NCBI GenBank assembly: GCA_963719225.1
Contig: CAVRAY010000001.1
Span: forward strand, 2,208,001 to 2,272,000
From: Thermoanaerobaculia bacterium
Lineage (GTDB): Bacteria > Acidobacteriota > Thermoanaerobaculia > UBA5066
Reading direction: 5' to 3'
Length of the DNA: 64,000 nucleotides
The notes below the pieces were generated by a model. It was not told the origin of the DNA. It was given only the letters and a program-made list of their open reading frames with translations, and did no database searches. Positions 6,950-53,635 of the stretch are shown here, piece by piece. The first letter of the stretch is position 1, and every line of letters begins with the position of its first letter. The translations under genes and the position numbers were made by a program.

Positions 6950-8451
6950 GGATTCCTTGCTCCCCGGCCGTCGTCTGGAACGGCCGCTCTTACTCATTCG
7001 AAGAAATCCGCCGGTGGGCGAGTGAATACTCAGCCACCCTGGCTTCTCTCGGCATTCGTCCGGGCGATCGCGTCGCGGTGTTCGCGGAGACGTGTCCCGA
7101 GCTCGTCGCCGCTTTCGTCGGCCACCTCTCGTCGGGCGTCATCCACGTGCCCATCAACACGCGCTACAAGGCCGACGAGGCACGTCACGTCCTCGAGGAC
7201 TCGGGGGCGGCGGCGGTGCTGACGCAGGAGGGGGAAGACTGCCGCCAAGTCCTGGACGAGATCCTCAGAAAGCAACAGCCTCCAAAGCTGCGCGAGGTCC
7301 TTTCCATCGCTTCAGCCTTCCCCTCTTCCCCTTCTGAGAATTCTTTATCTTCCTCTTTCTCTTCGACGCCATCGGATGACGACATCGCGATGCTCATCTA
7401 CACCTCGGGCACGACGGGCAAGAGCAAGGGCGTCGCGCTGGCGCATCGCGCTCTCGAGGCCAACACGCGCGCGATGATGGAGCTCTGGCGTTTCACTCCG
7501 GACGACCGTCTCCTGCTCGCACTTCCGTTGTTCCACGTGCACGGGCTTTGCCTCGGAGTCGCGGGCGCGCTTCTCACCGGCTTCACGCTGCTACTCGAGG
7601 GACGCTTCGACGCGGCCCGGGTCGTGAAGGCGTTCGCGACCGAGGGCGCGACGGCCTTCATGGGAGTGCCGACGATGTACGTCCGCCTCCTCGAGCACCT
7701 CGAGGCTCATGCGGAGGGGGCTGAAGCGCTTAGCAAGGCGAGGCTCTTCACCGCGGGGAGCGCGCCGCTGCCGGCCGCCGACTTCGAGGCTTTCCGCCAG
7801 AAGACCGGCCACGCGATCCTCGAGCGCTACGGGATGAGCGAGACGCTCTTCACCCTGTCGAATCCCTACGAAGGCGAGCGGCGCCCCGGCACCGTCGGGC
7901 TCCCCGTCACCGGCTGCTCCGTGCGGCTCGCGGACGACGACGGACGCGACACCCACGAGGGCGAGCCGGGAGAAATCCACGTCAGGAGCAACGGGTTGAT
8001 GAGCGGCTATTGGGGACGCGAGGCCGATACCGCCGCCGCGTTCCGGGACGGCTGGTTCCTCACGGGGGACGTGGCGCGCCGGGATGCCGACGGGTACGTG
8101 ACGATCCTCGGCCGCAAGTCGGTCGACTTCATCAAGAGCGGCGGCTACAAGATCTCCGCCCGCGAGATCGAGGACGTGCTCCGCCGGCATCCGTCCGTGA
8201 AGGACGCGGCCGTCGTCGGCCTCCCCGACCGGGTCTGGGGCCAGCGCATCGCGGCGGCCGTCGTCCTCGTCGAGCCCGGCGACGCCGAGGCCGCGGTGAG
8301 GGCGTGCGAGGAGATCGGCGCCTTCGCCTCGTCGTGCCTCGCGGATTTCAAGAAGCCCCGCGACGTCCGCGCCGTACCCGAGCTGCCGCGCAACGCGCTC
8401 GGAAAGGTGCAGAAGCACCTGCTCGTGAAGACGCTCGGCGAGGAGCCGTGA
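6946..8451 (+). CDS. Acyl-CoA synthetase (AMP-binding, MatB/malonyl-CoA synthetase-like)
   Basis: YTSGTTGKSKG, LPLFHVHG, ERYGMSE, TGD, PRNALGKVQK; ATG overlaps livF stop. Confidence 0.85.
   Translation: MRIPCSPAVVWNGRSYSFEEIRRWASEYSATLASLGIRPGDRVAVFAETCPELVAAFVGHLSSGVIHVPINTRYKADEARHVLEDSGAAAVLTQEGEDCRQVLDEILRKQQPPKLREVLSIASAFPSSPSENSLSSSFSSTPSDDDIAMLIYTSGTTGKSKGVALAHRALEANTRAMMELWRFTPDDRLLLALPLFHVHGLCLGVAGALLTGFTLLLEGRFDAARVVKAFATEGATAFMGVPTMYVRLLEHLEAHAEGAEALSKARLFTAGSAPLPAADFEAFRQKTGHAILERYGMSETLFTLSNPYEGERRPGTVGLPVTGCSVRLADDDGRDTHEGEPGEIHVRSNGLMSGYWGREADTAAAFRDGWFLTGDVARRDADGYVTILGRKSVDFIKSGGYKISAREIEDVLRRHPSVKDAAVVGLPDRVWGQRIAAAVVLVEPGDAEAAVRACEEIGAFASSCLADFKKPRDVRAVPELPRNALGKVQKHLLVKTLGEEP
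7321..7343 (+). repeat. Dispersed TTCTWAGAA-core motif copy (intragenic)
   Basis: CCCTCTTCCCCTTCTGAGAATTC. Confidence 0.7.
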
Positions 8452-8454
8452 GCC

Positions 8455-9123
8455 TCAGCTCGCCCAGCCCATGTAGAGCATCACGAGGCCGAACGTGTCG
8501 ATGAAGCCGTGGGCGAGGACGCTCGCCCAGAGGTTCCGGCCGGAGAGAAGGTAGGCGGCGCCGAGGACGAGCCCGGACATGCCGGAATCCACCATTCCCG
8601 TCGGGCCCTTGTAATAGTGCCCGATGCCGAAGAGGACCGCCACGAACACCATCGCGACGAGATGGGCCGCGGCCGTTCCCTTACCGAGATCCGCGCCCCG
8701 CGTGAGGAGATAGCCCCGATACCCGAACTCCTCGCCGAACGCGGCCCACGTCCAGACGATGCCGAGCCACATGAGCGCGGTACCGAGATTTCCCGGGATC
8801 GCGGCGGCCCCCGCGGGCGCCACGATCGGAGGCCATACCTTCGCCGCCAGAGTCTCGACGACCTCGCCCAGGACGATCCTCAGCGCCGCCGCCGCAACGG
8901 CGATCAGAAGGATGCGGCCCCATGACTTCGGGCGGCGAAACGGCAGCGCCGACCAGCCCCCGCTGCGCACACGGAAAGAGACCAGCCCGAGCACGACGAG
9001 GATCGGGACCTCGTTTGGGACGACGTGAAACACGTTGTGCCCGATCACGATGGCGGAGCCGAAGAGAAGCTCGAGGCCGCTCACGACGCGTGAATCGGAG
9101 ATCTTCAGGTCGCCTGGGCTCAT
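8455..9123 (-). CDS. CPBP/CAAX-family intramembrane metalloprotease
   Basis: EEFGYRG, FGIGHYY, H..ID motifs. Confidence 0.85.
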   Translation of the reverse strand: MSPGDLKISDSRVVSGLELLFGSAIVIGHNVFHVVPNEVPILVVLGLVSFRVRSGGWSALPFRRPKSWGRILLIAVAAAALRIVLGEVVETLAAKVWPPIVAPAGAAAIPGNLGTALMWLGIVWTWAAFGEEFGYRGYLLTRGADLGKGTAAAHLVAMVFVAVLFGIGHYYKGPTGMVDSGMSGLVLGAAYLLSGRNLWASVLAHGFIDTFGLVMLYMGWAS

Positions 9124-9185
9124 GCGAGTCTTCGCGCGGGAAGTCGATGCCGCCCGGAGATAATCGACCCGTTCGAGGAGGATGA

Positions 9186-11150: not shown

Positions 11151-11160
11151 GCACGGGCGG

Positions 11161-14512: not shown

Positions 14513-14586
14513 TCGAGCGGGATTTAAGCACACCGATTCGCATCTCTGCCCGCTTCCGAGGAAGGCACTACACTCTCGGTCGCTCC

Positions 14587-15411
14587 ATGACGACGCGCAT
14601 CGACTCTTCCTCGAACCCGCGCATCGCCGCGGCGATCAAGGCCGTCGCAGCGCACGAAAAGATGCTCCTCGAAGGCACGCGAATGATCGGGGAGGCACTC
14701 GACGCGCGGGTGCGGATAGAAGATGTTCTTGTTCAGAGAGACCAAGAGGAAGAAAGGGAAAGAGAAGATTTTCTTACAAGGGTAAGAGGGGAAGGATCGC
14801 GCGTGAGCGAGGTTTCGGCGCGCGTCCTGCGAAGGCTCTCGGATCTCCCCTCGACGCGCGGCGTCGTCGCGATCGCGGCACCCCCCCTCCGTACGCTGAG
14901 CTCTCTCTCTTCGCTCTTCCCGTATTCACCTTCTAAGAAATCTTCCCTTTCTTCTCTCTTCCTCCTCCTCGACGACGTTCAGGATCCCGCGAACGTCGGC
15001 GCGATCCTGCGGAGCGGCGAGGCCTTCGGCGTCGCCGCCGCTCTCCTGACGCCCGGGTGTGCCTGGCCCTTCTCGCCGCGCGTCCTGCGCGCGTCGGCGG
15101 GAAGCGCGTTCCGGCTGCCTGTCGCGGCAGGCGTCGATCCGGCCGAGGCCGTCGCCTGGGCACGAGGCCACGGAATCGTCCTCGCGGGAGCGGCGGCTCA
15201 CGGTGGCGCGCCCCCCGCGGTCCTCGCCGGCGTCCGTCCGCTCGCGCTGGTGATCGGCTCGGAAGGCCACGGGATCTCGCCGGGAATTGCCGCGGCGCTC
15301 GACCACCGCGTCACGCTGCCGCTCGCGGGCCGCGTCGACTCGTTGAACGCCGCCGTCGCCGCGGGCGTCCTCCTTCACGTCCTGTCGCGTCCGCCCGCGC
15401 CCGCGCGTTAG
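14587..15411 (+). CDS. TrmH/SpoU RNA methyltransferase
   Basis: QDPANVGAILR, GSEGHG, SLNAAVA. Confidence 0.9.
   Translation: MTTRIDSSSNPRIAAAIKAVAAHEKMLLEGTRMIGEALDARVRIEDVLVQRDQEEEREREDFLTRVRGEGSRVSEVSARVLRRLSDLPSTRGVVAIAAPPLRTLSSLSSLFPYSPSKKSSLSSLFLLLDDVQDPANVGAILRSGEAFGVAAALLTPGCAWPFSPRVLRASAGSAFRLPVAAGVDPAEAVAWARGHGIVLAGAAAHGGAPPAVLAGVRPLALVIGSEGHGISPGIAAALDHRVTLPLAGRVDSLNAAVAAGVLLHVLSRPPAPAR
14764..14791 (-). repeat. Dispersed motif copy (intragenic)
   Basis: + strand GAAGATTTTCTTACAAGGGTAAGAGGGG. Confidence 0.75.
14929..14945 (+). repeat. Dispersed motif copy (intragenic)
   Basis: CCTTCTAAGAAATCTTC. Confidence 0.75.
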
Positions 15412-16206: not shown

Positions 16207-16212
16207 TCCGCC

Positions 16213-16776
16213 TCAGAACACTTCGGCGGTGAACCGGAGGAGGCGGGGAGGGCTCGGGCCCTTCCAGCTCTCCTCCGGAAGGCCGGCCCTCAGGCATGCC
16301 TGGGACAGGATGCGCGGGCCGTCCCAGCCGAACGTCGCGGCATCCTGAGGCAGGACGACTCCGCGGCGTTTCCCTTTTTCGACGACGACACCATGCAGGC
16401 GCGAGTCGGGCCGGGAGAGAACGGGAATTTCTTCGGAGGAAGAGAAGATTTCTTCGAAGGTGGAGAGGATGGAGATCTCGGGCACGTAGCGCGGCAGCTC
16501 CCTGGCGGTCGCTGGAGGGAACCTCGGGTCGCGCAGGAGTGCCGTCACGGCGTGCTCCTCGACCTCTTCGACGAGCCCGCGCGCGGCCTCGGTCGTTCCG
16601 CTGCGCCCCCGCGGCCGCCCGTCCCTCTTCCACGTCACGAAGACGGGCGCGGGCCCCGCGAGCGCTCCGCTCGCGGGAATCTCCGGCCGCACCGGAGCGC
16701 GCAGTCCGATCGCGCGCGCCGCCGCCGACAAAGCGACCTTTCTAAGAATCTCTCTCTCTTCCTCCGAAAGCATCAT
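16213..16776 (-). CDS. AMMECR1-domain protein
   Basis: VFVTW, RDPRFPP, EISILS, GVVLPQ. Confidence 0.8.
   Translation of the reverse strand: MMLSEEEREILRKVALSAAARAIGLRAPVRPEIPASGALAGPAPVFVTWKRDGRPRGRSGTTEAARGLVEEVEEHAVTALLRDPRFPPATARELPRYVPEISILSTFEEIFSSSEEIPVLSRPDSRLHGVVVEKGKRRGVVLPQDAATFGWDGPRILSQACLRAGLPEESWKGPSPPRLLRFTAEVF
16737..16754 (+). repeat. Dispersed motif copy (intragenic)
   Basis: CCTTTCTAAGAATCTCTC. Confidence 0.65.
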
Positions 16777-18596: not shown

Positions 18597-20321
18597 ATGA
18601 GCGATCCCCCCGTCTTCCCTTCTAAGAAGATCATTCTCTTCGAACGCTGCATCTCGCTTCTTGTCGCCATTCTTGGAGCGACCCTCGTCCTGCACCACAT
18701 GGCTGGCGATTCCGCGACGACGGACGAGCCCGTGCACATCGCGGCGGGCGTGGAGATCGTCCGGGACGGGACGGGCCGGTGGAACCCGGAGCATCCGCCG
18801 CTCGCGAAGGCTCTCGCCGGCCTCGCCCTCACCGGTCTCGACGTCCGGCCCGCAGGCGATCCCGTCGCGAATCCCTCCCACGCCGGCCTTCTCCTTCGCT
18901 TCCTCTTCGAAAACCAGACGCCCGCCGAGACGATCCTGTTCCGCGCGCGCCTGCCGTTCGTGGCGCTGTTTCTCGCCCTGCTCTTCGCCGTTCGGCGCGA
19001 AGCCGCACGCCGCTTCGGCATGGCCGCGGGCGGCGCCGCGCTCGCGTTCGCGGCTCTGGAGCCGAACCTCATCGCCCACGCCGGCGTCGTCCACACGGAC
19101 CTCGCCGTCACGCTCTTCCTCGTCCTCTCGCTCGGGCCGCTCTCCCGCATTCCCGACGCGAACGACCGCATCGCTCCCGTTTTCCTCGGAGTCCTCTGGG
19201 GACTCGCGTTCCTCTCCAAGTACAGCGCGCCGCTGCTGGTGCTCGTAACACTGCCGCTCATGTTCGTCGGAGGACCGGGGACCAGGGAGAATTTGCTTAG
19301 GAAGGAAAGAGGGCTCGCCCGTGGCGTAGCTCGTGTGGGCGGGCGCCTTCTCCTCGCTACTTTCATAGCAATCCTCGTCGTTTTCCTCGGATTCTTTCTC
19401 GCCTACCGAAACCAATCGGCTTCGGATCGGGAGGCGCTGGCCCGAAATCGGTTGCTCTTGAAAGGACATTCGCAGGCCTGTAGCGACTTCGCGATCGGGG
19501 CGGGTCGCCTTGCTCCACCGCTCGGGAACGTCGCGACCGGAGCGCTCTCCGTGGCGCTTCAGAGCCGCGTCGGCGCCGGCCCCTCCTATTTCATGGGACA
19601 CGTCGCCGAGGGCGGGAGCCCATGGTATTTCCCCGTCGCCTTCCTCGTGAAGGTGTCCCTCGGTCTCGTCGCCGGCGCGGCCCTGGGAGTCTTCTCTCCG
19701 GTCGGACGTCGGTTCGGCCTCTTCGTCGTCGGAGCCCTCGTCGCGTTCTTCGTCCTCTCCGCCGGGGCCGCGTACAACATCGGCGTGAGGCATCTGCTCT
19801 TCGCGTTCCCGCTTCTCGCGATCCTCGCCTCCTCGGCGGCCGCGGAACTCCGGCCCATGGGCCGCGCCCTTCTCCTCGGAGGGTTTCTCGTCGTCGAGGC
19901 GATCGAGGTCCTGGCGGCTCATCCGCACGAGCTCGCGTTCTTCAACGTGGCGGCCGGCGGGCCTTCGGGCGGGCGGCGGTTCCTCGTGGACAGCAACCTC
20001 GACTGGGGCCAGGATCTCGCGCGGCTTTCGATCCAGGCGCCCGCCTACTCTTCGAAGCCGCTTCCCGCCATCGTCTTCGGAGGGGACCTCCCGCGGCGCT
20101 ATCCCTCGCTCCGGCAGCTCGCGCCGGGTGACGAGGACCGCCCCGGCGCCTTGATCGCGATCGGCGAGACGCCGATGGCCCTCGGACCCGAGCTCCTGGC
20201 CTCGAAGGGCGCCGCTCGGGACGCCGAACGTCTCGCCGCGCTCCAGCGGGCTCTTCGCTCCAGGGGAAACCGCATCGGGACGATCGGCGGCTCGATCGGC
20301 ATCTGGCGCCTGAGTCCGTGA
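18597..20321 (+). CDS. GT-C glycosyltransferase (family 39, ArnT/PMT-like)
   Basis: TDEPVH, EHPPLAK, KYS, DSNLDWGQD; many TM helices. Confidence 0.8.
   Translation: MSDPPVFPSKKIILFERCISLLVAILGATLVLHHMAGDSATTDEPVHIAAGVEIVRDGTGRWNPEHPPLAKALAGLALTGLDVRPAGDPVANPSHAGLLLRFLFENQTPAETILFRARLPFVALFLALLFAVRREAARRFGMAAGGAALAFAALEPNLIAHAGVVHTDLAVTLFLVLSLGPLSRIPDANDRIAPVFLGVLWGLAFLSKYSAPLLVLVTLPLMFVGGPGTRENLLRKERGLARGVARVGGRLLLATFIAILVVFLGFFLAYRNQSASDREALARNRLLLKGHSQACSDFAIGAGRLAPPLGNVATGALSVALQSRVGAGPSYFMGHVAEGGSPWYFPVAFLVKVSLGLVAGAALGVFSPVGRRFGLFVVGALVAFFVLSAGAAYNIGVRHLLFAFPLLAILASSAAAELRPMGRALLLGGFLVVEAIEVLAAHPHELAFFNVAAGGPSGGRRFLVDSNLDWGQDLARLSIQAPAYSSKPLPAIVFGGDLPRRYPSLRQLAPGDEDRPGALIAIGETPMALGPELLASKGAARDAERLAALQRALRSRGNRIGTIGGSIGIWRLSP
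18618..18632 (+). repeat. Dispersed motif copy (intragenic)
   Basis: CCTTCTAAGAAGATC. Confidence 0.7.
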
Positions 20322-25890: not shown

Positions 25891-26402
25891 CGGCGCGCTC
25901 CAGGAGGCCGCACGATCTCCGGGCCGTCGTCGAGGGCGACGCGGCGGTAGAACGCGGTGCAGGCGCGGGACGCTTCGAGGCAGGCTTCGTCGAGGGAGAC
26001 AAGAGAAAATTCGGAGAGAGAGGAGATTTTGTTTTCGGAAGAAGAAGAAGGAGAAGAAGAAGATTCTTTGAATGGGAAGAGATTGGAGGCGAGGCGCTCG
26101 AGGTCCGACATTGCGCGATCCAGCGTCTGGAGGTCCGGATCGTCTGCCGGAAACGACGGCCCCTCTTCCCTCTTCCATTCCAAGAAGATCTTCAGAACGT
26201 CCTCACTGGCTCTGCCGCCTCTCGTGCGCGGCAGAAGGTCCGCTACGAGCCGCGCACGCAATTCGTCCGGGCTCGTTTCTCTCTCTTCCGGCGCGCTCCA
26301 GCGGAGGGCCTTGCCCACGTCGTGCTTCAACCGAAAGGCTGCGGACTTTCTCCGCAGCCTCCGGTCTTCGGTGTCTTGATGGTCTCGCCGTGTGCCCGTC
26401 AT
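25887..26402 (-). CDS. Hypothetical protein with HisKA-like LKHDVGK motif
   Basis: Overlaps the start of the next gene; operonic position. Confidence 0.6.
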   Translation of the reverse strand: MTGTRRDHQDTEDRRLRRKSAAFRLKHDVGKALRWSAPEERETSPDELRARLVADLLPRTRGGRASEDVLKIFLEWKREEGPSFPADDPDLQTLDRAMSDLERLASNLFPFKESSSSPSSSSENKISSLSEFSLVSLDEACLEASRACTAFYRRVALDDGPEIVRPPGARR

Positions 26403-27996: not shown

Positions 27997-28053
27997 CGAG
28001 GGCGATCACGCCCGGTGCGTTTCTGGTAACGCCTGTATTATGCGATATGGAGT

Positions 28054-28072
28054 AGTTTTCTTAGAAAAGGAG
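28054..28072 (-). repeat. Dispersed motif copy (intergenic, extended palindrome)
   Basis: AGTTTTCTTAGAAAAGGAG. Confidence 0.65.
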
Positions 28073-28077
28073 ATAAC

Positions 28078-29097: not shown

Positions 29098-29694
29098 TCA
29101 ACTCGCGAGCGAAAGAAAGTGGAATGCCGCGATCACCAAAGAATGCGTGATGGCTCCCCGCCGGATGAGGCCCGGGATGCGGGCCAACGGCACGAGCTCG
29201 ACGGCCAGGTCTTCGCCTTCGTCGGGGATGAGCTCCCCCACGGGGCGGCACCCCTTCGCGAGATAGGTCGTGCACCGATTCGAGAGGATGGCGGGATTCG
29301 GCTCCACGACCCCGAGCCGCTTCCAGCTCCGCGCCACGTGCCCCGTCTCCTCGCGCAGCTCGCGTCGGCCGGCGACCAGAGCCGAGCCGTCGTGGGTCTC
29401 CACGCCGCCGCCCGGGATTTCCAGCGTGACCGTGCGCGTGCCCGCCCGGAACTGCCTGACGAGGACGACCTCGTTCCGATCCGTCAATGCGATGACGTTC
29501 ACCCAGTCGGGGCAGTCGAGGACGTAGAACGGGTGCGGAAGACCAGTTCTCGGCGAGCGCAGGATCTCGCGCCGCACCGAAAAGACCTTGAAGCTGCCGA
29601 GCGCCTCGCGGGAGACGACCGGCCAGATTGAGGGAATCGTCCGAAAAACACCGGGCGAGATTTGCTTAGAAGACGAGCCCCTCTTCCCTTTCAA
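29098..29694 (-). CDS. NUDIX hydrolase (ADP-ribose pyrophosphatase-like); start uncertain
   Basis: VRQFR, EIPGG, RRELREETG. Confidence 0.88.
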   Translation of the reverse strand: MKGKRGSSSKQISPGVFRTIPSIWPVVSREALGSFKVFSVRREILRSPRTGLPHPFYVLDCPDWVNVIALTDRNEVVLVRQFRAGTRTVTLEIPGGGVETHDGSALVAGRRELREETGHVARSWKRLGVVEPNPAILSNRCTTYLAKGCRPVGELIPDEGEDLAVELVPLARIPGLIRRGAITHSLVIAAFHFLSLAS

Positions 29695-29704
29695 AGAAAT
29701 CTTC
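29657..29704. repeat. Two back-to-back motif copies in opposite orientation
   Basis: GAGATTTGCTTAGAAGACGAG followed by CCCCTCTTCCCTTTCAAAGAAATCTTC. Confidence 0.65.
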
Positions 29705-30748: not shown

Positions 30749-31729
30749 ATGGAGTCTCCTCCTCTTCTTTTCGATCTCACGGGCCGCGGCGCGGTCGTCC
30801 TCACCGGAAAGGACCGCGCTTCGTACCTTCACGGCCTCGTCACGAACGACATCAAGAATCTGACCCCGGGCACCGGCTGCGCGGCGGCCTTCCTGACGCC
30901 GAAGGGAAAGCTCCTGGCCGACTGCGTCGTCCTGGGCGAGGAGGACCGCCTCGAGATCGACTGCGAGCCGGAGCTCGCGAAGAAGATCGAAGATTTGCTT
31001 CGGAAGTATCTGGTATTCAACGAGGTCGAGATCGGGACTCTCACATCGGAGACGGCCGTCTTTCACCTCCAGCATTCGGCGGCGGGTGACGCGGTCGAAG
31101 ATTTTCTGAGAAGGGTAATAGGGGAAGGAGAGCTCCGGCCCGCCGTGGCGTTGCCGGACACGCCGCACGCCCACGTCATGGCGTTAATTTCCGGCGACGT
31201 CCGCCTCGTTCGCGAGAACCGCACCGGCATCCCGGGCTACGACGTCCGCTTCCCCTCTTCCCACTCAGAAGAAATCCGAAAAGCATTCCTCGCCGCCGGG
31301 GCGCGGCAGGCCTCGGACGCCGAATTGGAAAGCCTGCGCATCCGGGCCGGCATCCCGCGCTGGGGCTTCGAGCTGACGGAAGCCGTCCTGCCTGACGAAG
31401 CCGGGCTGAGGGAGCGGGGCTTCATCTCCGACAGCAAGGGCTGCTACATCGGACAGGAGACGGTGGCCCGCATCAAGACGTACGGTCACGTGAACCGAAG
31501 CCTCGTGCGCCTGCTTCTCGAGGGGGAAGCTCCCGCGGCCGGCAGCGAGATCCTCTTCGAGGGGGAGAAGGCCGGAGCCGTGACGAGCGCCGCCCCGGGG
31601 GCGGCATCCGCTCCGGCCACCGCCCTTGCGTACGTCCGGCGAGAGCGCGCCGCTCCCGGAACGCGGCTCCTCGTCCGCACGAGAGAAGGCGACCGCCCCG
31701 CGACGGTGTCGCCGCCGCCCGTTGCCTGA
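30749..31729 (+). CDS. ygfZ: YgfZ/GcvT-like folate-binding protein
   Basis: GLVTND, LTPKGK, KGCYIGQE. Confidence 0.88.
   Translation: MESPPLLFDLTGRGAVVLTGKDRASYLHGLVTNDIKNLTPGTGCAAAFLTPKGKLLADCVVLGEEDRLEIDCEPELAKKIEDLLRKYLVFNEVEIGTLTSETAVFHLQHSAAGDAVEDFLRRVIGEGELRPAVALPDTPHAHVMALISGDVRLVRENRTGIPGYDVRFPSSHSEEIRKAFLAAGARQASDAELESLRIRAGIPRWGFELTEAVLPDEAGLRERGFISDSKGCYIGQETVARIKTYGHVNRSLVRLLLEGEAPAAGSEILFEGEKAGAVTSAAPGAASAPATALAYVRRERAAPGTRLLVRTREGDRPATVSPPPVA
31097..31124 (-). repeat. Dispersed motif copy (intragenic)
   Basis: + strand GAAGATTTTCTGAGAAGGGTAATAGGGG. Confidence 0.75.
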
Positions 31730-38318: not shown

Positions 38319-39680
38319 GTGACAGCCCTGAGACTCTTCCGCAGCAGCCGCGTCGTCACGCCCGGGGGCGTCGAGCCGGCGTCCGTTCGCGTGCGGGACG
38401 GCGTCATCATCGCCGTCGGCGGCCACGAGGCGGCGCCGGACGGTGCGGACGTCCACGACTTCGCGGACGCGGTCCTGATGCCGGGAGTCGTCGACAGCCA
38501 CGTCCACGTCAACGAGCCCGGCCGCACGGAGTGGGAAGGCTTCGAGACGGCGACCCGCGCCGCGGCGGCGGGCGGCGTCACGACCATCGGCGACATGCCG
38601 CTGAACAGCGTTCCGGCCACGACGAACGCGGACGCGGTGGCGGTGAAATCCGGCGCCGCCAACGGCAAGGCGGCGGTCGATTACGTCCTCTGGGGCGGTC
38701 TCGTGCCCGCGAACGCGCGGCGGCCGGAGGTGCTCGACGCCCTCCTTTCGGCCGGCGTTCCGGGATGCAAGTGCTTTCTCGTCCCCTCCGGTGTCGACGA
38801 ATTCCCGAACGTCACGGCGGCCGACCTCGAGGCGGCGATGCCCCGCCTCGCGCAGAGAGGCTCGGTCCTCCTCGTTCACGCCGAGCTGCCGGGGCCCATC
38901 GAAGCCGCCTCCGCGTCCGGAGATCCGCGTTCTCATGCGACGTGGCTCGCCTCCCGCCCGCGCGCTTCCGAGAACGAGGCCGTGGCCCTCATGATCGACC
39001 TCGCCGAGCGCACCGGCTGCCGCGTCCACATCGTCCACCTGTCCTCGGCCGACGCCCTCTCTGCGTTGCGCGCGGCACGCCGCCGCGGGGTTCCGGTCAC
39101 GGTGGAAACGTGCCCTCACTACCTGACGTTCGCCGCGGAGGAGATCGGCGACGGCCGGACGGAATTCAAGTGCGCGCCGCCGATCCGCGAGCGCGAGAAC
39201 CGCGAGCGCCTCTGGGAAGGCCTGCGAGACGGCACGATCGACATGGTGGTCTCCGACCACTCGCCGTGCGCCCCCGAGCTGAAGGCGCGGGAAAGCGGGG
39301 ACTACCTCGCGGCCTGGGGCGGCATCTCGTCTCTTCAGCTCGCGCTGCCCGCTCTCTGGACCGCGGCGCGCGCGCGGAGCTTCACGCTTTCCGACGTCGC
39401 CGAATGGATGTGCCGCCGCCCCGCGTCGCTTCTCGGCCTCGAAAACCGAAGGGGATCGATCGCGCCGGGCCGCGATGCGGACTTCGTCGTTTGGTATCCT
39501 GAACGCGAGTTTTCCGTGGAACCCGCTCTCCTTCGCCACCGGCACACGGTGACGCCCTATGCGGGGCGCGCCCTTTTCGGCGTCGTCGAGAGAACCTTCC
39601 TTCGTGGAGAGGTCGCGTTCGACCGCGGCACGTTCGCCGGCACTCCGTCCGGGCGTTGGCTCCGGCCCGGCCGGCCCTGA
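38319..39680 (+). CDS. allB: Allantoinase
   Basis: HVHVNEPGRTEWEGF, KCF, HAE, ETCPHYL, SDHSP, WGGIS. Confidence 0.93.
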   Translation: MTALRLFRSSRVVTPGGVEPASVRVRDGVIIAVGGHEAAPDGADVHDFADAVLMPGVVDSHVHVNEPGRTEWEGFETATRAAAAGGVTTIGDMPLNSVPATTNADAVAVKSGAANGKAAVDYVLWGGLVPANARRPEVLDALLSAGVPGCKCFLVPSGVDEFPNVTAADLEAAMPRLAQRGSVLLVHAELPGPIEAASASGDPRSHATWLASRPRASENEAVALMIDLAERTGCRVHIVHLSSADALSALRAARRRGVPVTVETCPHYLTFAAEEIGDGRTEFKCAPPIRERENRERLWEGLRDGTIDMVVSDHSPCAPELKARESGDYLAAWGGISSLQLALPALWTAARARSFTLSDVAEWMCRRPASLLGLENRRGSIAPGRDADFVVWYPEREFSVEPALLRHRHTVTPYAGRALFGVVERTFLRGEVAFDRGTFAGTPSGRWLRPGRP

Positions 39681-39681
39681 C

Positions 39682-41172
39682 GTGGCGCGTTTCACGGAGC
39701 TCGTCGACCTCGCTTCTTCGCGCGTCGGCGGAGCCGTCCTTTTCGCGAACGACGATTTCTTCGCGCCGAAGGAGAACCTCCTCGAGCCGGAAGCGCCCGT
39801 CTTCCTGCCCGACCGTTACACGGACCGCGGCAAGTGGATGGACGGCTGGGAGAGCCGGCGACGGCGCACGCCGGGCCACGATTTCTGCGTCGTCAGGCTC
39901 GGCCTGAGAGGCGTCGTCCATGGAGTGGACGTGGACACGAGCCACTTCACGGGCAACTTTCCGGAGGCGGCGTCGCTCGACGCGACCGACGCGCCGGAAG
40001 GGACGCCGCTCGAGGAGCTCGGGAGCGGAGACGTTCCCTGGATCGAGATCCTCCCCCGCTCGGCCCTCCGGGGAGACACCCGAAACCTGCTTCCCGTCTC
40101 GAGCCGAAGGCCGTTTTCACACGTGCGCCTCGCCATCCATCCCGACGGCGGCGTGGCGCGCCTTCGTGTGCACGGCGAAGTCGTGCCCGACTGGAAGACG
40201 CTCTCGGCCCGGAGAGAGGCCGTCGACCTCTGCGCGCTCGAAAACGGGGGGCTCGTTCTCGCTTCGAGCGACAGCTTCTTCGGCTCGCACCAGAGCCTCC
40301 TGATGCCGGGACCCGCTTCCGGAATGAAGGACGGGTGGGAGACGAAGCGTAGCCGCCGGCCGGGTTTCGACTGGGTCGTCGTCCGGCTCGGGACGCGGGG
40401 CAGCATCGCTCGCGCCGTCGTGGACACGAGTCACTTCAAAGGCAACTTCCCCGATCGCGCCTCGCTCGAGATCTGCGACGCTCCCCTGGCGACCGTCGAG
40501 ACGCTGGCCGATTCGAAAAGCGTCTGGCAGCCCGTGCTGCCGGAGACGCCGCTCGCCGCCGACACCGTGCACTCCTTCGAGAAGGAGCTCTTTCCGCACG
40601 CGCCGGGCACCCACGTTCGCCTGCGCATCTACCCCGACGGCGGCGTGAGCCGGCTGCGTCTCTACGGCGCCCCGCGGCTTCCAGAGGCGGTCGCGCGATT
40701 GAACGCCGCATCTCGCGAGGACGTCCTCACAAAGCTAGCCTCGTTCTGCGGGTCGCGGCGCTTTTCTTCGAAGGTGGAAGAAGGAAGACCCTATTGGAGT
40801 TACCTCGAGCTACTGCGGGCCGTCGATTCCGCCTTCGAAGAACTCCTCCCGGAGGACTGGCTCGAGGCGTTTCGCGCCCACCCCCGCATCGGCGACCGGG
40901 GCGCCGCGGGGAGCGCGGCGTCGGAGCAGGCCGCGGCGCTCGTGGCGGCGCCCGCGGTCCTCGAGCGCCTCCGACTCGCTAACGCGGAATACGAGAAGCG
41001 GTTCGGCCATCTTTTCATCGTCTGCGCCTCGGGCCGGCCGGCCGACGCGCTCCTCGCGAACCTCGAGGAGCGGCTCGCGAATCCTCCCCCGGTCGAGCTC
41101 GGAATCGCGGCGGAAGAACAGCGGAAGATCACGCGGCTGAGAGTCGAGAAGTTTCTCGCGGAGGGCGCATGA
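39682..41172 (+). CDS. alc: Allantoicase fused to OHCU decarboxylase
   Basis: Two allantoicase repeats (DGWE..R, PDGGV.RLR) plus C-terminal AHPRIG, SEQ, YE.RFG..FIVCA, EQ.KI..LR. Confidence 0.88.
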   Translation: MARFTELVDLASSRVGGAVLFANDDFFAPKENLLEPEAPVFLPDRYTDRGKWMDGWESRRRRTPGHDFCVVRLGLRGVVHGVDVDTSHFTGNFPEAASLDATDAPEGTPLEELGSGDVPWIEILPRSALRGDTRNLLPVSSRRPFSHVRLAIHPDGGVARLRVHGEVVPDWKTLSARREAVDLCALENGGLVLASSDSFFGSHQSLLMPGPASGMKDGWETKRSRRPGFDWVVVRLGTRGSIARAVVDTSHFKGNFPDRASLEICDAPLATVETLADSKSVWQPVLPETPLAADTVHSFEKELFPHAPGTHVRLRIYPDGGVSRLRLYGAPRLPEAVARLNAASREDVLTKLASFCGSRRFSSKVEEGRPYWSYLELLRAVDSAFEELLPEDWLEAFRAHPRIGDRGAAGSAASEQAAALVAAPAVLERLRLANAEYEKRFGHLFIVCASGRPADALLANLEERLANPPPVELGIAAEEQRKITRLRVEKFLAEGA

Positions 41173-41600
41173 GCCACACGCGTTCGCCGATCACCACGCA
41201 TGTCCTGGACCTCGCGACGGGGAGACCGAGACCGGGGATTCGGATTCTTCTTAGAGTGAAAGAGAGCGACCGCACGGGCGGGACGAAGAAGCGGGCAGGC
41301 GGGGCGGCGGGTGTCGGCGCGACCTGGCGCGAAATCGGCAGGGGCGTCACGGACGCCGACGGCCGCGTGGAGAATCTGCTTCCGGCCGCAGCACGAATCG
41401 AGCCGGGCACCTACTCCCTCACCTTCGACATCGGCGCGAAGCGCTCTCCCTCTTCCCCTTCTAAGAAATCCCCCTCTTCTTCTCTTTCTTCATTCTTTCC
41501 CGAAATCACCATCACGTTCGTGATCAGCGACCCCTCCGCGCATTACCACGTCCCGCTGCTGCTCTCGCCCTTCGGATACTCCACCTACCGGGGCAGCTGA
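41169..41600 (+). CDS. uraH: 5-hydroxyisourate hydrolase
   Basis: ITTHVLD, DGR, HYHVPLLLSPFGYSTYRGS. Confidence 0.93.
   Translation: MSHTRSPITTHVLDLATGRPRPGIRILLRVKESDRTGGTKKRAGGAAGVGATWREIGRGVTDADGRVENLLPAAARIEPGTYSLTFDIGAKRSPSSPSKKSPSSSLSSFFPEITITFVISDPSAHYHVPLLLSPFGYSTYRGS
41448..41471 (+). repeat. Dispersed motif copy (intragenic)
   Basis: CCCTCTTCCCCTTCTAAGAAATCC. Confidence 0.8.
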
Positions 41601-41601
41601 C

Positions 41602-42489
41602 GTGGATCCGAACGTCCACGAGTGGCTGCACCTGATGCTGCGCTGGGCGCACATCCTCGCCGGCATCATGTGGATCGGCGATTCCTTCCTCTTCATGTGG
41701 CTGGACCGGACGCTGCTCCCGCCCGACCCGCCGCGCGACGGCGTCACGGGCGAGCTGTTCCTCGTCCATGGGGGCGGCTATTACCAGGTGGAGCGACGCC
41801 TCTTCCAGCCCGGCCGAATGCCGTCCCTCCTGCACTGGTTCAAGTGGGAATCCCTCTCGACGTGGGCGACGGGGTTTCTCCTGCTCCTCCTCGTCTATTA
41901 CTACGGCGGCGGAATCCTCCTCGTCGACCCCTCCGTGTCGAGGATCTCCGTGCCCCTCGCGATGGCGCTCGGCCTGGCTCTGCTGCCCGTGTCGTGGCTC
42001 GTCTACGACGCGCTCTGGATCTCTCCCCTCGGGAAGAGCACGCCCCTCGCGGGGGTCGTCTCGGTCGGCCTCTTCTCGGGTCTCGCCTATTTCCTGACTC
42101 ACGTCTTCGGCTCCCGCGCCGCGTATCTCCATGCCGGAGCGATTCTCGGGACGATCATGGTGCTGAACGTGTGGGTGAGGATCCTGCCCGTGCAGCGGAG
42201 GATGCTGGCCGCCGTGCGGGCGGGACGGAGCGTCGATCCCGCGCCGGGCCTCGCCGCCAAGAAGCGCTCGACGCACAACACGTACATGACACTTCCCGTC
42301 GTCTTCACGATGGTGAGCAACCACTTCCCGACGACGTACGGCAGCCGCTGGAACTGGGCGGTGCTCGTGCTGCTGGCGCTCGCGGGCGGGGGAATCCGCC
42401 ACTTCATGCTCACGCGCTCGACGAAGACGGCGTGGCTCCTCGCCGCCGGAGCCGCGCTCACGGCCGCGGCGTTCGTCCTGACGCGGTAG
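41602..42489 (+). CDS. puuD: Urate oxidase PuuD membrane domain (no C-terminal cytochrome c)
   Basis: RWAH...GI.WIG.S, VHGGG.Y, LHWFKWE, RS.HN.Y.TLPV.F.M.SNH. Confidence 0.85.
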   Translation: MDPNVHEWLHLMLRWAHILAGIMWIGDSFLFMWLDRTLLPPDPPRDGVTGELFLVHGGGYYQVERRLFQPGRMPSLLHWFKWESLSTWATGFLLLLLVYYYGGGILLVDPSVSRISVPLAMALGLALLPVSWLVYDALWISPLGKSTPLAGVVSVGLFSGLAYFLTHVFGSRAAYLHAGAILGTIMVLNVWVRILPVQRRMLAAVRAGRSVDPAPGLAAKKRSTHNTYMTLPVVFTMVSNHFPTTYGSRWNWAVLVLLALAGGGIRHFMLTRSTKTAWLLAAGAALTAAAFVLTR

Positions 42490-42501
42490 AAGGCGAGAAC
42501 G

Positions 42502-42882
42502 CTACGCCAGCGCGAGGGGAACGTGCTTCGACATCAGCCCGAAGATCCTGTCCTCGGTCAGAAGAGTCGCCTGCAGATCGAGGGCGCACTGAGCGACGTG
42601 CGCGTCGGGCGTGGACACGGAAACACCCTTCGGGAGAAGCGACGCGCGCAGCTTTCCCACACGAAACCAGTGTTGGTGCTCCGTACCACACAACGGAAGG
42701 TCCGAGAGGAGATCTTCGAGCGCCGAACGGTCCGGGGCGCTGAGCCTCCCGCTGAGGAGCTCGGCCGCCACGACCGCGGGAAGAAACACGCGTCCTTCGG
42801 CCAGCGCGTCGTCGATCAGCGGCGAGCCGTGGCCCGCGAAATACGACACCCAGCTCGACGTGTCAATGACGAGGGCGCTCAC
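42502..42882 (-). CDS. vapC: VapC/PIN-domain toxin
   Basis: IDTS, AELLSG, DAHVA, L.TEDR.F. Confidence 0.88.
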   Translation of the reverse strand: MSALVIDTSSWVSYFAGHGSPLIDDALAEGRVFLPAVVAAELLSGRLSAPDRSALEDLLSDLPLCGTEHQHWFRVGKLRASLLPKGVSVSTPDAHVAQCALDLQATLLTEDRIFGLMSKHVPLALA

Positions 42883-43072
42883 GCGAAACCCTGAGGTCGA
42901 TCTTCAGGCGGAGACGGCCTTTGAGCCGGGCCGCCTTCCGGGCGGCCGCCGAGCGGCGAACGAGCTCCAGGCCGTCTACGAGCGTCTCCGTGATCCCTTT
43001 CCCGGTGGCGCGCCGTGCTTCGCTCAGAAGCAGGGCCGGGAGATTGGCGCTGATGCGGCGAGTGCTGTCCAT
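42863..43072 (-). CDS. Antitoxin (VapB/RHH-like)
   Basis: Small basic ORF upstream of and overlapping the PIN gene. Confidence 0.75.
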   Translation of the reverse strand: MDSTRRISANLPALLLSEARRATGKGITETLVDGLELVRRSAAARKAARLKGRLRLKIDLRVSRERPRH

Positions 43073-43103
43073 ACGCTCATACTAACGCTCGTCTATACCG
43101 CCG

Positions 43104-44315
43104 TCAACGGCCCGCCGTCCTGTTCTTCAGGATCTTCGCGAACGAGCCGCTGACGAGCTCCTCGGGAGAAAGGCCCGCCTGCTCGGCGTCCGACTCGCGG
43201 AACGCTCCGCAGTTTTTCCCTCGAAGGAAGAAATTCAGGAGGGCCTGGCCCGTGGCCGGATCGTCGAGGATGCCACCGGTGGTGGCGGTCGTGGCAGCTG
43301 CACCTTTCTCGAGAGCCGCCCGCAGACGCTCCTGCGCCGCCCTCTTACCTTCTAAGAAGAATCCGAAATTCGCTGCAAAACGCGAAGGCAGCTGGGCGGG
43401 GTGCAGATCCCAACCTTGATAGAAACCACCCTCGAGGGATCGACGGACGTCGGCATAGTGGACGCGCCACGCCGCATGAACGGCCGCGCGGTCGCCGACG
43501 GGCAGGACGTTCGTGGATCCGTCCGAAAGCATGATTCCCGTGCCCGCGAGCGAGACTTGCAGGACGTGCCTCGCGAAGTCGCACGCGGGGTGCCCCATGT
43601 GCTGGAAGGCGGCGGCGATCCCGAGGCTGGCGGTGTAGTCGTACGTCCCGAAATGCGCGCCGACGCAGCGTCCTCGCGCCGCGCGGACGAGCTCTGGCAG
43701 CGCGATGCGGCCATCCGGCGTGAAGATCGTCTGCGGCGTCTCGACCATGATCTCGAAACCGAGACTCCCGCCGGGAAGACCGAGACGTTTCTCGTGGCCG
43801 TCGAGGGCCTCCGCCAGGATCGCCGGCTGATCGGGCGACGTGATCTTCGGGAGCGTGACGACAAAGCCGGGCGGGAGGCTTCCGCGGCCTTCGGCCGCAA
43901 GCGTCGAGAGGAAGATCTCGAGAGTTCGGAGCGCCCGAGCCGCGCTTCGGTCTTCGAGAGGCTTGATTCGGATTCCATAGAAAGTGGAGAGAGAGCCCGC
44001 GGCTCGAGCGGCGGCCACCCCGCGGGCCACGGCCGCGGTGCACGCGTCCTCTTCGTCGTCCGTCCGGACTCCGTACCCGTCCTCGAAGTCGATCCGGTAG
44101 TCCTCGACGGGGTCTTCTCTCAGCTTTCCAAGAACTCTCTCGTGGATCTCTTCGAACCGTGGGGAAGGAGGGAGGCCGAGCGCCTCGGCGAAAGCCGTGC
44201 CCGTCGGCGCGTGCTTGCGGAGCGCGGCGAGAGCCGCCTCACCGAGCTCCTTCGCCGCATTTGCGCGGAAGAGGTGAGCGCCCTCATAGAAGGTGTGGAC
44301 GGGCTGGCGCTTCAT
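43104..44315 (-). CDS. HpcH/CitE-like TIM-barrel lyase (DUF6986-type)
   Basis: RQPVHT.Y, RIDFEDGYG, TLPK, EIMVET, HFGTYDY, QGWDLHPAQL. Confidence 0.75.
   Translation of the reverse strand: MKRQPVHTFYEGAHLFRANAAKELGEAALAALRKHAPTGTAFAEALGLPPSPRFEEIHERVLGKLREDPVEDYRIDFEDGYGVRTDDEEDACTAAVARGVAAARAAGSLSTFYGIRIKPLEDRSAARALRTLEIFLSTLAAEGRGSLPPGFVVTLPKITSPDQPAILAEALDGHEKRLGLPGGSLGFEIMVETPQTIFTPDGRIALPELVRAARGRCVGAHFGTYDYTASLGIAAAFQHMGHPACDFARHVLQVSLAGTGIMLSDGSTNVLPVGDRAAVHAAWRVHYADVRRSLEGGFYQGWDLHPAQLPSRFAANFGFFLEGKRAAQERLRAALEKGAAATTATTGGILDDPATGQALLNFFLRGKNCGAFRESDAEQAGLSPEELVSGSFAKILKNRTAGR
43340..43364 (+). repeat. Dispersed motif copy (intragenic)
   Basis: CCCTCTTACCTTCTAAGAAGAATCC. Confidence 0.8.
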
Positions 44316-45302: not shown

Positions 45303-45315
45303 CGGCTGAAGTATC

Positions 45316-46926: not shown

Positions 46927-47034
46927 GGTTGACCGTCATCGGACGGAGTGATCTCATCCGGCCCAGATCGGAGTCAACAGCCGGGTCCTTTCCACAATGA
47001 CGTCAAGGCCGAAAACGGCCGGAGGAGTGCGGTC

Positions 47035-48375: not shown

Positions 48376-48387
48376 CGCGGGCGCTCG

Positions 48388-49472
<1,085 letters not shown>

Positions 49473-49476
<4 letters not shown>

Positions 49477-51229: not shown

Positions 51230-51331
51230 GGATGCAAACGCATCCCTTGACCGGCTTTCCCGCCGCGCCCTACGTATTTGAGGGATCCCGCAAAAAGGCG
51301 GCCTCTTCGCCGCGGAAATGCGAGGTTTGTC

Positions 51332-51757
51332 ATGCCTAAAGGTCACTTCCGGCTGTTTGCCCTTCTCGGCGGGGGAATCGTCCTCGTCGTCGCGCTGGCC
51401 GGACTCTGGCGCGTCCAGAACCAGCCGGTCAACGCGACCTGGACCCCTGCACACCTGGCGCTGCCGCTTTCCACGACGGCGGACCGCATCGAGGTGCTCG
51501 TCGCCGACGTACCTCTTCAGAAAGCCGTCACGGACAAGCGCCTGATCATCTCGACGGATACGGGCCTGAAGCCCGTCCTCGAGGCCACGGTTCGCGTGAA
51601 CAACGCCGACCAGATTCTCGCGGCCCGCTTCACCCCGCTCCTCGTACTTTCGGCCGTGGCCGGCGGCGCATTCGTGCTCTTTCTCGTCGGCCTCTTCGCA
51701 CCGCGCATCGGGGCATTCCATCAGCACGGCCTCATCGACCTGCACCTGACGGCGTAA
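51332..51757 (+). CDS. Hypothetical two-TM protein
   Basis: GAGG RBS, good codon usage, two hydrophobic segments. Confidence 0.6.
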   Translation: MPKGHFRLFALLGGGIVLVVALAGLWRVQNQPVNATWTPAHLALPLSTTADRIEVLVADVPLQKAVTDKRLIISTDTGLKPVLEATVRVNNADQILAARFTPLLVLSAVAGGAFVLFLVGLFAPRIGAFHQHGLIDLHLTA

Positions 51758-51808
51758 GACGCCCTGGAGCTCGGGATTCGGCGGCCGGCCGCTCCCGCGG
51801 TCCGGCCG

Positions 51809-53635
51809 TTGGCTTATCGTGCGCCGGTGGACCGGAAGGCGCTCGTGTTTTCCCTGGCGATGGTGGCCGCCGTCTTCGTCGCCTATCTCCCCGCCCTCGA
51901 TGCGGGTTTCGTCTGGAACGACGACACGTACCTGACGGAAAACCGCACGCTCGACGCTCCCGACGGACTCCATCTGATCTGGACCGAGCCGAAGGCCAGC
52001 GAGCAGTACTACCCCATGGTCTTCACCTCGTTCTGGATCGAGAAGCGCCTCTGGTCGCTCCATCCGCTCGGCTATCACCTCGTCAACGTCCTTCTGCATG
52101 CCGGATCGGCTCTGCTGCTCTGGTGGCTCCTGCTTCGTCTCAGCCTGCCCGGCGCCTGGCTCGCCGCCGCCGTTTTCGCCCTGCACCCGGTGTGCGCCGA
52201 ATCCGTCGCCTGGGTCACCGAGCGCAAGAACACGCTCTCGCTGTTCCTGTCGCTCCTCGCGATGCACGCGTACCTGGCGTGGCGTGAAGAGAAGAAAGAA
52301 GAGAAGACCGAAGATTTTCTTAGAAAGGGTAAGAGGGGACGGGCGGCACAGCGCTCACCCGCGGCGCGGCCCTCATTCGCTGCGCGGCGCCGATCCTCTT
52401 CCTTCATCGGATTCCTCGGGTTCCTTCTCTTCGTCCTCGCTCTCCTCGCGAAGACGACCGCCGTCGTCGTCCCGGCCGTTCTCCTCGTCCTCGTGTGGTT
52501 CCGGCGCGGCAGGGTCGCCGGGAGGGACGTTGGGCCGCTCGTCCCGTGGTTCGCGGCCGGCATCGCGCTCGCCCTCCACACCGCCTGGCTCGAGAGGACG
52601 ATGGTGCAGGCGGCCGGACGCGAGTGGGCGCTCTCACTCGCACAGCGGATCGTCCTCGCGGGCCGCGTCCTTCTCTTCTATTCGAAGAAACTCTTCTTTC
52701 CGACCGATCTCTCCTTCTTCTACGAGCGATGGACCGTCGACGCGCGCCGGCTCCTCCAGTGGCTCCCGGCGCTCGCGGCTCTCATCGTCCTCGTGCTCGC
52801 GTGGCGCTTCCGCGCGCGCCTCGGCCGCGGGCCTCTCGCGTCCCTCCTCCTCTTCGGAGGCGTCCTCTTTCCCACGATGGGATTCTTCAACGTCTACGCG
52901 ATGCGCTATTCGTGGGTCGCGGATCACTTCGCCTATCAGGCCGCCGCCGTCCTCGCGGCCTGCGTCACGTGCGGGGCGGCCTCCTGGGTCGTTCTCCGAA
53001 ACCCGGCGGTGCGGCGGGCCTCGGCGGTCCTCGCCGTCGCGGTTCTCGCGGTCTTCGGAACGCTCACCTTTCGTCACAGCAGGAGCTTCCACGACCCCGA
53101 GACGCTCTGGAAGGACACGCTCGAACGAACCCCTTCCTGCTTCATGTGTCACACGAACTACGGCAACTGGCTCGTGGAGAACGGCCGCGAGGACGAGGCG
53201 GTCCTCCATTTCGAGAAGTCCCTGGCCCTCAAGGGGGACAACGTCCCCACGCTCCTCAATCTCGCGCGCATCGACGAAGGTCACGGCCGTCTGGACGCGG
53301 CGGCCGCCCGCCTTCGCGCGGCCGCGGCGATCGATCCCGCGGACACGGCGGTTCTGATCAACCTCGGGACCGTGAGCACGAAGGCGGGACGGCTGGACGA
53401 GGCCGTCGCGGCCTACGGAGAAGCCTTGCGGCTGGGCTCGTCCGAGGATTACCTCGCGCACAACGGCCTCGGTGTCGCGCTCATGCGGGGCGGGAGCCCG
53501 GGGAAGGCCGTGGAGCATTTTCGCGAGGCGCTCCGTCTCAGGCCCGACTACGAGTACGCCCGCGCGAATCTCGAGCGCGCTCTCGCCGTTTCGGGTGGGC
53601 CCGTCGCCGGGACTCCGCGCCCGCCGGGACGGTAG
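51809..53635 (+). CDS. TMTC-like GT-C membrane protein with C-terminal TPRs
   Basis: F.WNDD, YHLVNVLLH, HP...ESVAW..ERK, ADHF.Y, TPRs. Confidence 0.82.
   Translation: MAYRAPVDRKALVFSLAMVAAVFVAYLPALDAGFVWNDDTYLTENRTLDAPDGLHLIWTEPKASEQYYPMVFTSFWIEKRLWSLHPLGYHLVNVLLHAGSALLLWWLLLRLSLPGAWLAAAVFALHPVCAESVAWVTERKNTLSLFLSLLAMHAYLAWREEKKEEKTEDFLRKGKRGRAAQRSPAARPSFAARRRSSSFIGFLGFLLFVLALLAKTTAVVVPAVLLVLVWFRRGRVAGRDVGPLVPWFAAGIALALHTAWLERTMVQAAGREWALSLAQRIVLAGRVLLFYSKKLFFPTDLSFFYERWTVDARRLLQWLPALAALIVLVLAWRFRARLGRGPLASLLLFGGVLFPTMGFFNVYAMRYSWVADHFAYQAAAVLAACVTCGAASWVVLRNPAVRRASAVLAVAVLAVFGTLTFRHSRSFHDPETLWKDTLERTPSCFMCHTNYGNWLVENGREDEAVLHFEKSLALKGDNVPTLLNLARIDEGHGRLDAAAARLRAAAAIDPADTAVLINLGTVSTKAGRLDEAVAAYGEALRLGSSEDYLAHNGLGVALMRGGSPGKAVEHFREALRLRPDYEYARANLERALAVSGGPVAGTPRPPGR
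52310..52338 (-). repeat. Dispersed motif copy (intragenic)
   Basis: + strand GAAGATTTTCTTAGAAAGGGTAAGAGGGG. Confidence 0.8.

Follow-up and report, generated by a model that had tools for sequence, protein, structure and literature searches.

What kind of signal is a short AT-rich word that recurs in many unrelated genes of a GC-rich bacterium? The question is raised by a 64,000-nucleotide stretch of a Thermoanaerobaculia bacterium (Acidobacteriota, UBA5066; assembly GCA_963719225.1, contig CAVRAY010000001.1, positions 2,208,001 to 2,272,000; hereafter the window), in which the original prediction, made from the letters alone, listed 21 positions of a ~25-bp motif in both orientations, at least eight with an exact core. 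We followed the motif through the genome (G000; contigs C1 and C2) and its relatives, and conclude that it is a real, selected, lineage-restricted paired DNA signal that belongs to no known family.

Enrichment and consensus

The 9-mer TTCTAAGAA is the most over-represented word of its length on contig C1, with 259 copies where an order-4 Markov model expects 6.7, and C1 and C2 together hold 273 copies of the exact core. A 25-column matrix finds 859 sites of at least 16 bits in the genome, against about 16 expected (scaled from an order-5 Markov simulation); this threshold is a convention, because the matrix was trained on the same genome. The enrichment persists against a codon-shuffled background, the control that the original prediction had proposed, with 161 cores in predicted genes and 0-4 in six codon-preserving controls, and an assembly artefact is ruled out by the presence of the motif in all 28 other genomes of the genus. 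The site is polar, with a consensus of approximately CCCTCTTC(A/C)C(C/T)TTC(T/G)AAGAAA(A/T)(C/T)(C/T) followed by a pyrimidine tail; the core first described as palindromic is a partial dyad, its centre and flanks being asymmetric. The original prediction knew of no described motif with such a consensus, and our literature search, which excluded supplements and for which subscription papers were mostly beyond reach, returned no description either; Rfam has no match within the window.

Genes were called with our own simple gene finder. Called genes contain 70% of the 859 sites and extended frames 84%; they cover 90% and 93% of the DNA, respectively. Genome-wide, sites are about three times as dense between genes as in coding sequence. 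All six reading frames are used, sense and antisense copies in genes are equally frequent (295 vs 290), and tandem copies 21-45 bp apart are common. Within the window the total is 26 sites of at least 16 bits, eight of them missing from the first list. All eight exact cores lie where they were reported, and 18 of the 21 listed positions reach 16 bits, the weak ones being 29657 (9 bits), 30989 (13) and 31252 (8). That the copies never break a reading frame is true of the coding majority only: 13 of the 21 fall in called genes, 5 in upstream extensions of frames and 3 outside genes.

The unit is an oriented pair

Treating the copies as independent single sites missed their arrangement. The unit is a polar pair, in which a purine arm (a minus site) is followed by ordinary sequence and then by a pyrimidine arm (a plus site). 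The genome has 281 such minus-then-plus pairs at 25-300 bp, mostly at 65-200 bp with a mode of 70-95 bp and few below 60, giving a lower limit of about 65 bp, and only 7 cases of the reverse arrangement within 260 bp. Among 742 strong sites, the opposite partner lies on the inner side in 593 and on the outer side in 20; relatives show the same bias, 291 to 4, at loci partly picked by the pair pattern.

The two arms of a pair resemble each other no more than those of shuffled partners (0.584 vs 0.582 +/- 0.005), with no covariation, and therefore each arm fits the consensus independently; no pair has as many as 28 of 40 identical bases. Spacers are host sequence and match one another only among paralogues, and no motif is common to them except GC-rich, Ala-like words. 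About 15 Ser/Thr kinase paralogues share one 93-bp pair, and a tandem cluster of such kinase genes lies at C1 2.293-2.320 Mb, most of them with the 93-bp pair in the N-terminal kinase region.

Conservation and the cost to proteins

The original prediction held that the signal is selected at the DNA level and overrides protein sequence, and this is supported by the retention of A/T at third codon positions in relatives and by a halving of identity to outgroup proteins under the sites. When 180 sites were aligned to relatives (444 observations), 84-96% had a site at the same place, with scores that were all-or-none. Between two species at 76% identity, the second represented by a copy in C2, 23 of 25 sites are kept in a sample not selected for the motif. 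(The assembly appears to be chimeric with a second species of the genus: C2 at ~600-800 kb repeats C2 7-223 kb in inverted orientation, with 75-86% identity.) Core A/T at third codon positions is kept at a rate of 0.79, compared with a background of 0.27 (pattern-matched pairs masked). Two frames would read the preferred T as part of a stop codon, and there G or A takes its place, whereas intergenic sites have 71% T; such frame-dependent substitution is what a tolerant binding matrix would show.

The outgroup comparison covered 896 orthologues in 2.4 of the 3.84 Mb of genome G022. Residues under ungapped sites are 27% identical to the outgroup orthologues, against 56% elsewhere, and the encoded peptides are not conserved in orthologues that lack the motif, a result named beforehand as one that could have gone the other way. 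As to whether the sites are insertions or recoding, both occur: of 202 sites aligned to the outgroup, 131 are ungapped substitutions, 36 lie mostly in insertions (background 1.2%) and 35 touch gaps, with a further 52 sites outside the alignments. Density varies, at 3.6 sites per 100 kb in genes with at least 65% identity to the outgroup compared with 23-34, 12 in genes without an outgroup hit compared with 23, and 6.9 in low-GC windows compared with 22. Gains and losses among relatives are likewise all-or-none, often as indels of 20-35 nt, and pair regions are indel-rich, with gaps at 9% of codons vs 1%.

Constraint also extends across the spacer. Spacer codons are shifted to A/T endings by a ratio of 1.6, also at residues identical to the outgroup and mostly in CpG context, and this third-position excess covers the spacer and ~80 bp beyond each arm before it ends, the part outside the arms being due in part to a clustering of further copies in the same direction at 70-90 bp. 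The outer flanks have no clear periodicity. Conservation of fourfold sites is higher in spacers than in the background (G/C kept 0.76 vs 0.69; C-G swaps 0.15 vs 0.24), and that of spacer amino acids is lower. Codon choice that is neutral in GC is shifted too, with CTG over CTC at 0.42 vs 0.27 (z 7.5) and GTG over GTC at z 3.2, so that TG/CA steps are favoured. From this composition we infer stiff purine stems and a more bendable, TG/CA-rich spacer; the A/T shift could equally be read as a change in mutation or repair beneath a bound complex.

Position on the chromosome

We place the origin at ~C2:327 kb on the basis of dnaA, two DnaA boxes and a parS match, with words that we take to be those of the DnaA box and parS. 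GC skew turns at ~C1:2.06 Mb (the skew terminus), and a search with a dif consensus gave no match. On C1, DNA no more than 0.5 Mb from the skew terminus has 30.5 sites per 100 kb and DNA far off has 11.7 (rho -0.75), a difference of about 2.6-fold, with sites across the whole chromosome. The gradient also appears within one class of genes, since orthologues of 35-65% identity go from 10.7 to 32.3 towards the terminus. Mapped along the origin-terminus axis, as the original prediction had proposed, density follows the axis and orientation does not, as there is no strand bias by replichore (422 vs 437).

Elsewhere on C1, positions 54955-57790 contain G runs and a T69/A109 block, probably a long-read assembly artefact.

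Distribution among related genomes

A survey of related genomes, which the original prediction had proposed, finds the motif confined to two sister genera. All 28 other genomes of the genus (g1) are rich in a strict 12-mer, which is present in all 8 genomes of the sister genus g11 at 1-25 copies each, occurs once in one of two g12 genomes and has no copy in the remaining 24 genomes of the family. In g11, consensus and pairing are as in g1, with 3-19 sites per 100 kb in stretches partly picked for hits. A looser pair pattern occurs in 22 of 22 g1 genomes, 4 of 6 g11 genomes and none of 95 other genomes of the order. (G019, an unpublished genome, contributes one row to each of four tallies, among them those of the looser pattern and of an IS110-family element discussed below; no claim is made on it alone.) In a species-level genome collection, the best 80 of at least 120 matches to a strict pair pattern were all titled Acidobacteria or Thermoanaerobaculia; viral contigs gave 0 matches, in a collection that may miss phages of this lineage.

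The outgroup G022 is almost without the motif, with 10 hits of at least 16 bits in 2.4 Mb. It has inverted repeats of its own (L298-L417), namely several families resembling MITEs (miniature transposable elements with inverted repeats; here 55-bp and ~245-bp) and inverted low-complexity heptamer arrays with the A-rich arm first, both mostly outside genes.

What the pairs may do

We think that the site pairs are binding sites for a bivalent, looping, chromosome-organising protein, a reading to which we give a probability of roughly 45%. A polar pair kept by selection inside and between genes would be recognised by a protein that holds both arms at once and bridges them, so that the 40-200 bp between the arms would be bent into a small loop, with the purine tracts as stiff stems and the TG/CA-rich spacer as the bend. 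The loops would serve organisation of the nucleoid and terminus, and may be needed most near the terminus. New sites appear to have two sources: tolerant codons that change by substitution, and loops that gain short duplications or insertions. Of the three roles that the original prediction had offered, a chromosome-organising protein fits best, because the sites form polar pairs and grow denser towards the terminus; an uptake signal is possible, and a tiny mobile element is disfavoured. More tentatively, these pairs may represent a new class of chromosome architecture: several hundred two-armed polar loop anchors in genes, with stiff stems and a selected bendable spacer, graded to the terminus, whose reader would be either a protein not yet recognised or a universal one that changed its specificity in the ancestor of the two genera.

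Several observations weigh against a looping protein. Tight loops often show a helical periodicity, and none was seen in pair spacing (p 0.22); 172 of the 859 sites have no inner partner of at least 8 bits; and pair-to-pair spacing is irregular (coefficient of variation 1.1-1.25). The spacer codon shifts could reflect local mutation or repair instead of bendability, and comparisons with different relatives are not mutually independent. The gradient is broad, without a bounded domain, and the partly chimeric C2 blurs the distance bins, including those of the 35-65% orthologues, the C1 figure being separate. A second genome (a 3.67-Mb contig) supports the gradient only weakly; a hand count of forward hits per 0.5 Mb among the matches listed gave at least 15, then 13, 18, 15, 24 and finally 12 up to 2.9 Mb.

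It also weighs against this reading that no binding factor was found. A co-occurring DNA-binding protein, which the original prediction proposed to look for, did not emerge from about ten candidates, none of which tracks the motif. The RAYT transposase (Y1_Tnp, PF01797) was not found in G000 and occurs in 4 of 28 genus genomes and in 17 of 17 motif-free g17 genomes. A second type II topoisomerase (topoisomerase IV) is present throughout the family, and among HU/IHF paralogues the fourth HU is also in the motif-free G022 and G059. The histone fold and MatP (PF06303; an E. coli control matched) were found in none of 5 genomes, and a four-helix-bundle protein does not track the motif. Four basic or helix-turn-helix (HTH)-like proteins fared no better: an HTH-TPR protein is in 44 of 48 genomes, a 70-aa protein in 5 of 5, an 86-aa basic protein gave no match in 5 relatives with the query used, and a basic 164-aa protein (C1 3836045-3836539, L418) is in 55 of 62 family genomes. 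The last has no Pfam family and carries an RGRP word, and what we take to be two HTH-like repeats and an AT-hook-like word; it is possibly an uncharacterised nucleoid protein. Subtraction against G022 gave no clean candidate list because the comparison covered 2.4 of 3.84 Mb. Since these candidates failed, the factor would be a gene outside those screened or a universal protein with changed specificity; the sharp phylogenetic edge (two genera with the motif, 95 genomes of the order without) should make it findable by gene-set comparison and DNA pull-down.

The best of the rival explanations, which we consider unlikely, is a signal for uptake or transfer of self DNA, in which a receptor acting as a dimer would favour DNA with two sites that face each other, and a bias in uptake, together with recombination, would fill tolerant codons without any chromosomal role. 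Hundreds of copies, a core with tract-like flanks and the use of six frames are all as this predicts, and so is the scarcity of sites in the most conserved genes, in genes without an outgroup hit and in low-GC windows, which is likewise reported for uptake sequences (excerpts of PMC2817400). ComEC is present, but it is also found in 10 of 14 control genomes and is therefore non-discriminating. Moreover, uptake drive would not be expected to produce one-way pairing at 65-200 bp or a terminus gradient within a gene class, and residues under uptake sequences are described as about as conserved as others (excerpts of PMC2817400), whereas identity is halved here.

Less probable again is that the pair is no static loop anchor but the substrate of an enzyme or barrier acting on both strands, as paired nicking or priming sites or as back-to-back polar fork pauses. 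Such a role would suit the terminus bias, the indel-rich pair regions and the CpG-biased A/T shift, and the facing terI/terII sites, ~0.1 kb apart, have the same geometry (excerpts of PMC13220808). Yet the pairs show no asymmetry to fork direction (arm scores 27.5 vs 27.0, p 0.20; lone sites 99 vs 73, p 0.056), their synonymous spacer sites are more conserved rather than less, and 245 comparisons of spacer orientation (186 forward, 6 weak reverse, 53 ties) contain no clear inversion of the inverton kind. Hundreds of barriers along both chromosome arms would presumably also be costly.

Templated or slippage writing, by end-healing or gene conversion between copies, would keep the sites by rewriting rather than by function. 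The all-or-none changes, often 20-35 nt indels, the 36 of 202 sites in insertions, the common tandem copies and a site added to an insertion-sequence (IS) end in this lineage are in its favour; nevertheless we hold it to be quite improbable, given that 131 of the 202 sites are ungapped substitutions, that variants obey frame constraints, that near-identical arms are lacking and that the only reverse transcriptase gene found is a lone one at the C2 end, where it lies among foreign-looking genes. Slightly more doubtful still are the ends of a domesticated MITE or REPIN family: the inverted doublets, a spacing near that of REPINs (71 and 110 bp; excerpts of PMC3116915) and the higher intergenic density recall such elements, but the spacers are host coding sequence, unrelated save among paralogues, most sites lie in genes, RAYT was not found in G000 and covariation between the arms is lacking. 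A hairpin of RNA or of single-stranded DNA is very improbable, for although true-pair duplexes are slightly stronger than shuffled ones (-30.2 vs -29.3 +/- 0.4 kcal/mol) and of the two arms the one that RNA polymerase reaches first has a slightly higher score (27.7 vs 26.4, p 0.002), no columns covary, spacers fold no better than flanks, and a hairpin could form with the arms in either order, one of which is nearly absent.

Sites and neighbouring genes in the window

The pairs and single sites of the window are as follows; distances are those between the partners.

1376..1400, plus: lone site in the non-coding 3' end of a truncated IS110-family element
6986..7010, plus: site within an AMP-binding enzyme frame, in its upstream portion
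7321..7345, plus: site in the AMP-binding enzyme gene
14766..14944: pair (minus 14766-14790, plus 14920-14944; 160 bp from centre to centre) within a SpoU/RlmB-type methyltransferase frame
16424..16753: two minus sites in tandem (16424-16448, 16445-16469) with a plus site (16729-16753), 290 bp, in an AMMECR1-domain gene
18609..18633, plus: site close to the start of a PMT_2 gene
19289..19375: pair, 68 bp, in a PMT_2 glycosyltransferase gene
26059..26191: pair, 114 bp, at the 5' end of a sigma-54 activator frame
28053..28077, minus: intergenic site just beyond a transglutaminase-like gene
29679..29703, plus: site between NUDIX and NYN genes; a minus copy 27 bp off is weak
31099..31277: minus site (31099-31123) in a YgfZ-type gene; its plus partner is decayed (8 bits)
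31548..31572, minus: site in the YgfZ-type gene, its position kept across the genus
40759..40847: pair, 70 bp, in an allantoicase/OHCU decarboxylase gene
41243..41472: pair, 211 bp, in a HIUase gene
43212..43363: plus site (43339-43363) in a DUF6986 gene; its minus partner is weak (13 bits, 133 bp)
43969..44139: pair, 152 bp, in the DUF6986 gene
52312..52694: pair in a TPR gene, 364 bp (minus 52312-52336, plus 52670-52694)

Contigs of a related strain have 68 different letters in place of 19283-19388, which contains the PMT_2 pair. Among 138 joints in contigs of related strains, the 15 that were listed are all skips. The HIUase protein matches a 109-position Pfam profile across 135 residues and therefore has extra residues. 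The sites of the YgfZ-type gene occur at the same codons in many orthologues of the genus and, by alignment, at none of 10 outgroup loci. The HIUase and DUF6986 genes belong to a purine/urate catabolism cluster at 38319-44315 (amidohydrolase, allantoicase-OHCU decarboxylase fusion, HIUase, Urate_ox_N and DUF6986), and at 62000-63893 an ATP-dependent ligase gene adjoins a gene for a LigD primase-polymerase domain.

The truncated IS110-family element (1322-2165; Transposase_20) is one of 5 genomic copies that share 98-100% identity, and its 3' end is long and non-coding. A strong motif site stands in this end, and a related element end in the outgroup G022 is without it; the element is present in 14 of 28 genus genomes and does not track the motif. 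Its flanks resemble what we take to be attC cores (of the IS1111-attC type). It lies in a low-GC run of small genes and IS copies (window 1-3550 and C1 2.19-2.21 Mb) that looks like an integron cassette array, and a tyrosine recombinase resembling an integron integrase is encoded at C1 1115037-1115990, apart from that stretch.

Comparison with known systems

To our knowledge, the genome-wide signals known in bacteria are either single sites (the DNA uptake sequence DUS, HIP1, matS, KOPS, Chi) or mobile doublets outside genes. A polar signal that comes in pairs and is strong enough to rewrite conserved enzymes, with constraint across the spacer, points to a novel DNA transaction in an unstudied lineage; the motif lacks a defining feature of each of REPINs, HIP1, AIMS, Ter and matS. 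Rickettsia palindromic elements are repeats tolerated in frame within genes and inserted as one conserved block. Unlike these or MITEs, two thirds of the aligned sites here are substitutions, the spacers are native and no internal block is conserved.

matS comprises a few palindromic sites in a bounded domain. The motif shares with matS/MatP the character of a terminus-biased chromosome-organisation signal (excerpts of PMC8669397 and PMC11564523), but it has hundreds of polar paired sites, a broad gradient and no MatP that we could find. With KOPS it shares an abundance that rises to the terminus, and with AIMS also a scarcity in foreign-looking DNA; KOPS are biased to the leading strand, and AIMS are 8-mers with the same bias (excerpts of PMC5993296), whereas the motif has no strand bias. 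The terI/terII sites of Bacillus subtilis, bound by RTP, are likewise two polar facing sites ~0.1 kb apart, but that system has nine sites (excerpts of PMC13220808), compared with ~280 pairs here, whose polarity is not arranged against fork direction.

REPINs with their RAYTs come close in being inverted doublets with a spacing of 70-110 bp (excerpts of PMC3116915 and PMC3337134); the sites described here, unlike them, lie mostly in genes rather than outside them, enclose host sequence, have arms that are not hairpin-complementary and occur in a genome in which RAYT was not found. The cyanobacterial HIP1 is also lineage-specific, over-represented and conserved in and between genes, with no known function and a proposed nucleoid role, but it is an 8-bp palindrome with periodic spacing (excerpts of PMC5861425), whereas the motif is polar, ~25-45 bp long, paired and irregularly spaced. 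HIP1-like motifs are perfect palindromes with a link to methyltransferases, which the asymmetric site described here does not resemble. Finally, the uptake signal sequences (USS) of Pasteurellaceae and the DUS of Neisseriaceae also run to hundreds of copies in all frames, favour poorly conserved genes and positions and are few in genes without homologues (excerpts of PMC2817400). What sets the motif, known here from its sequence, apart from DUS/USS is a one-way pair at 65-200 bp that looks obligate, a terminus gradient and a far larger cost in protein identity. The motif is also a natural setting in which to gauge how far a code at the DNA level can be paid for in protein sequence.

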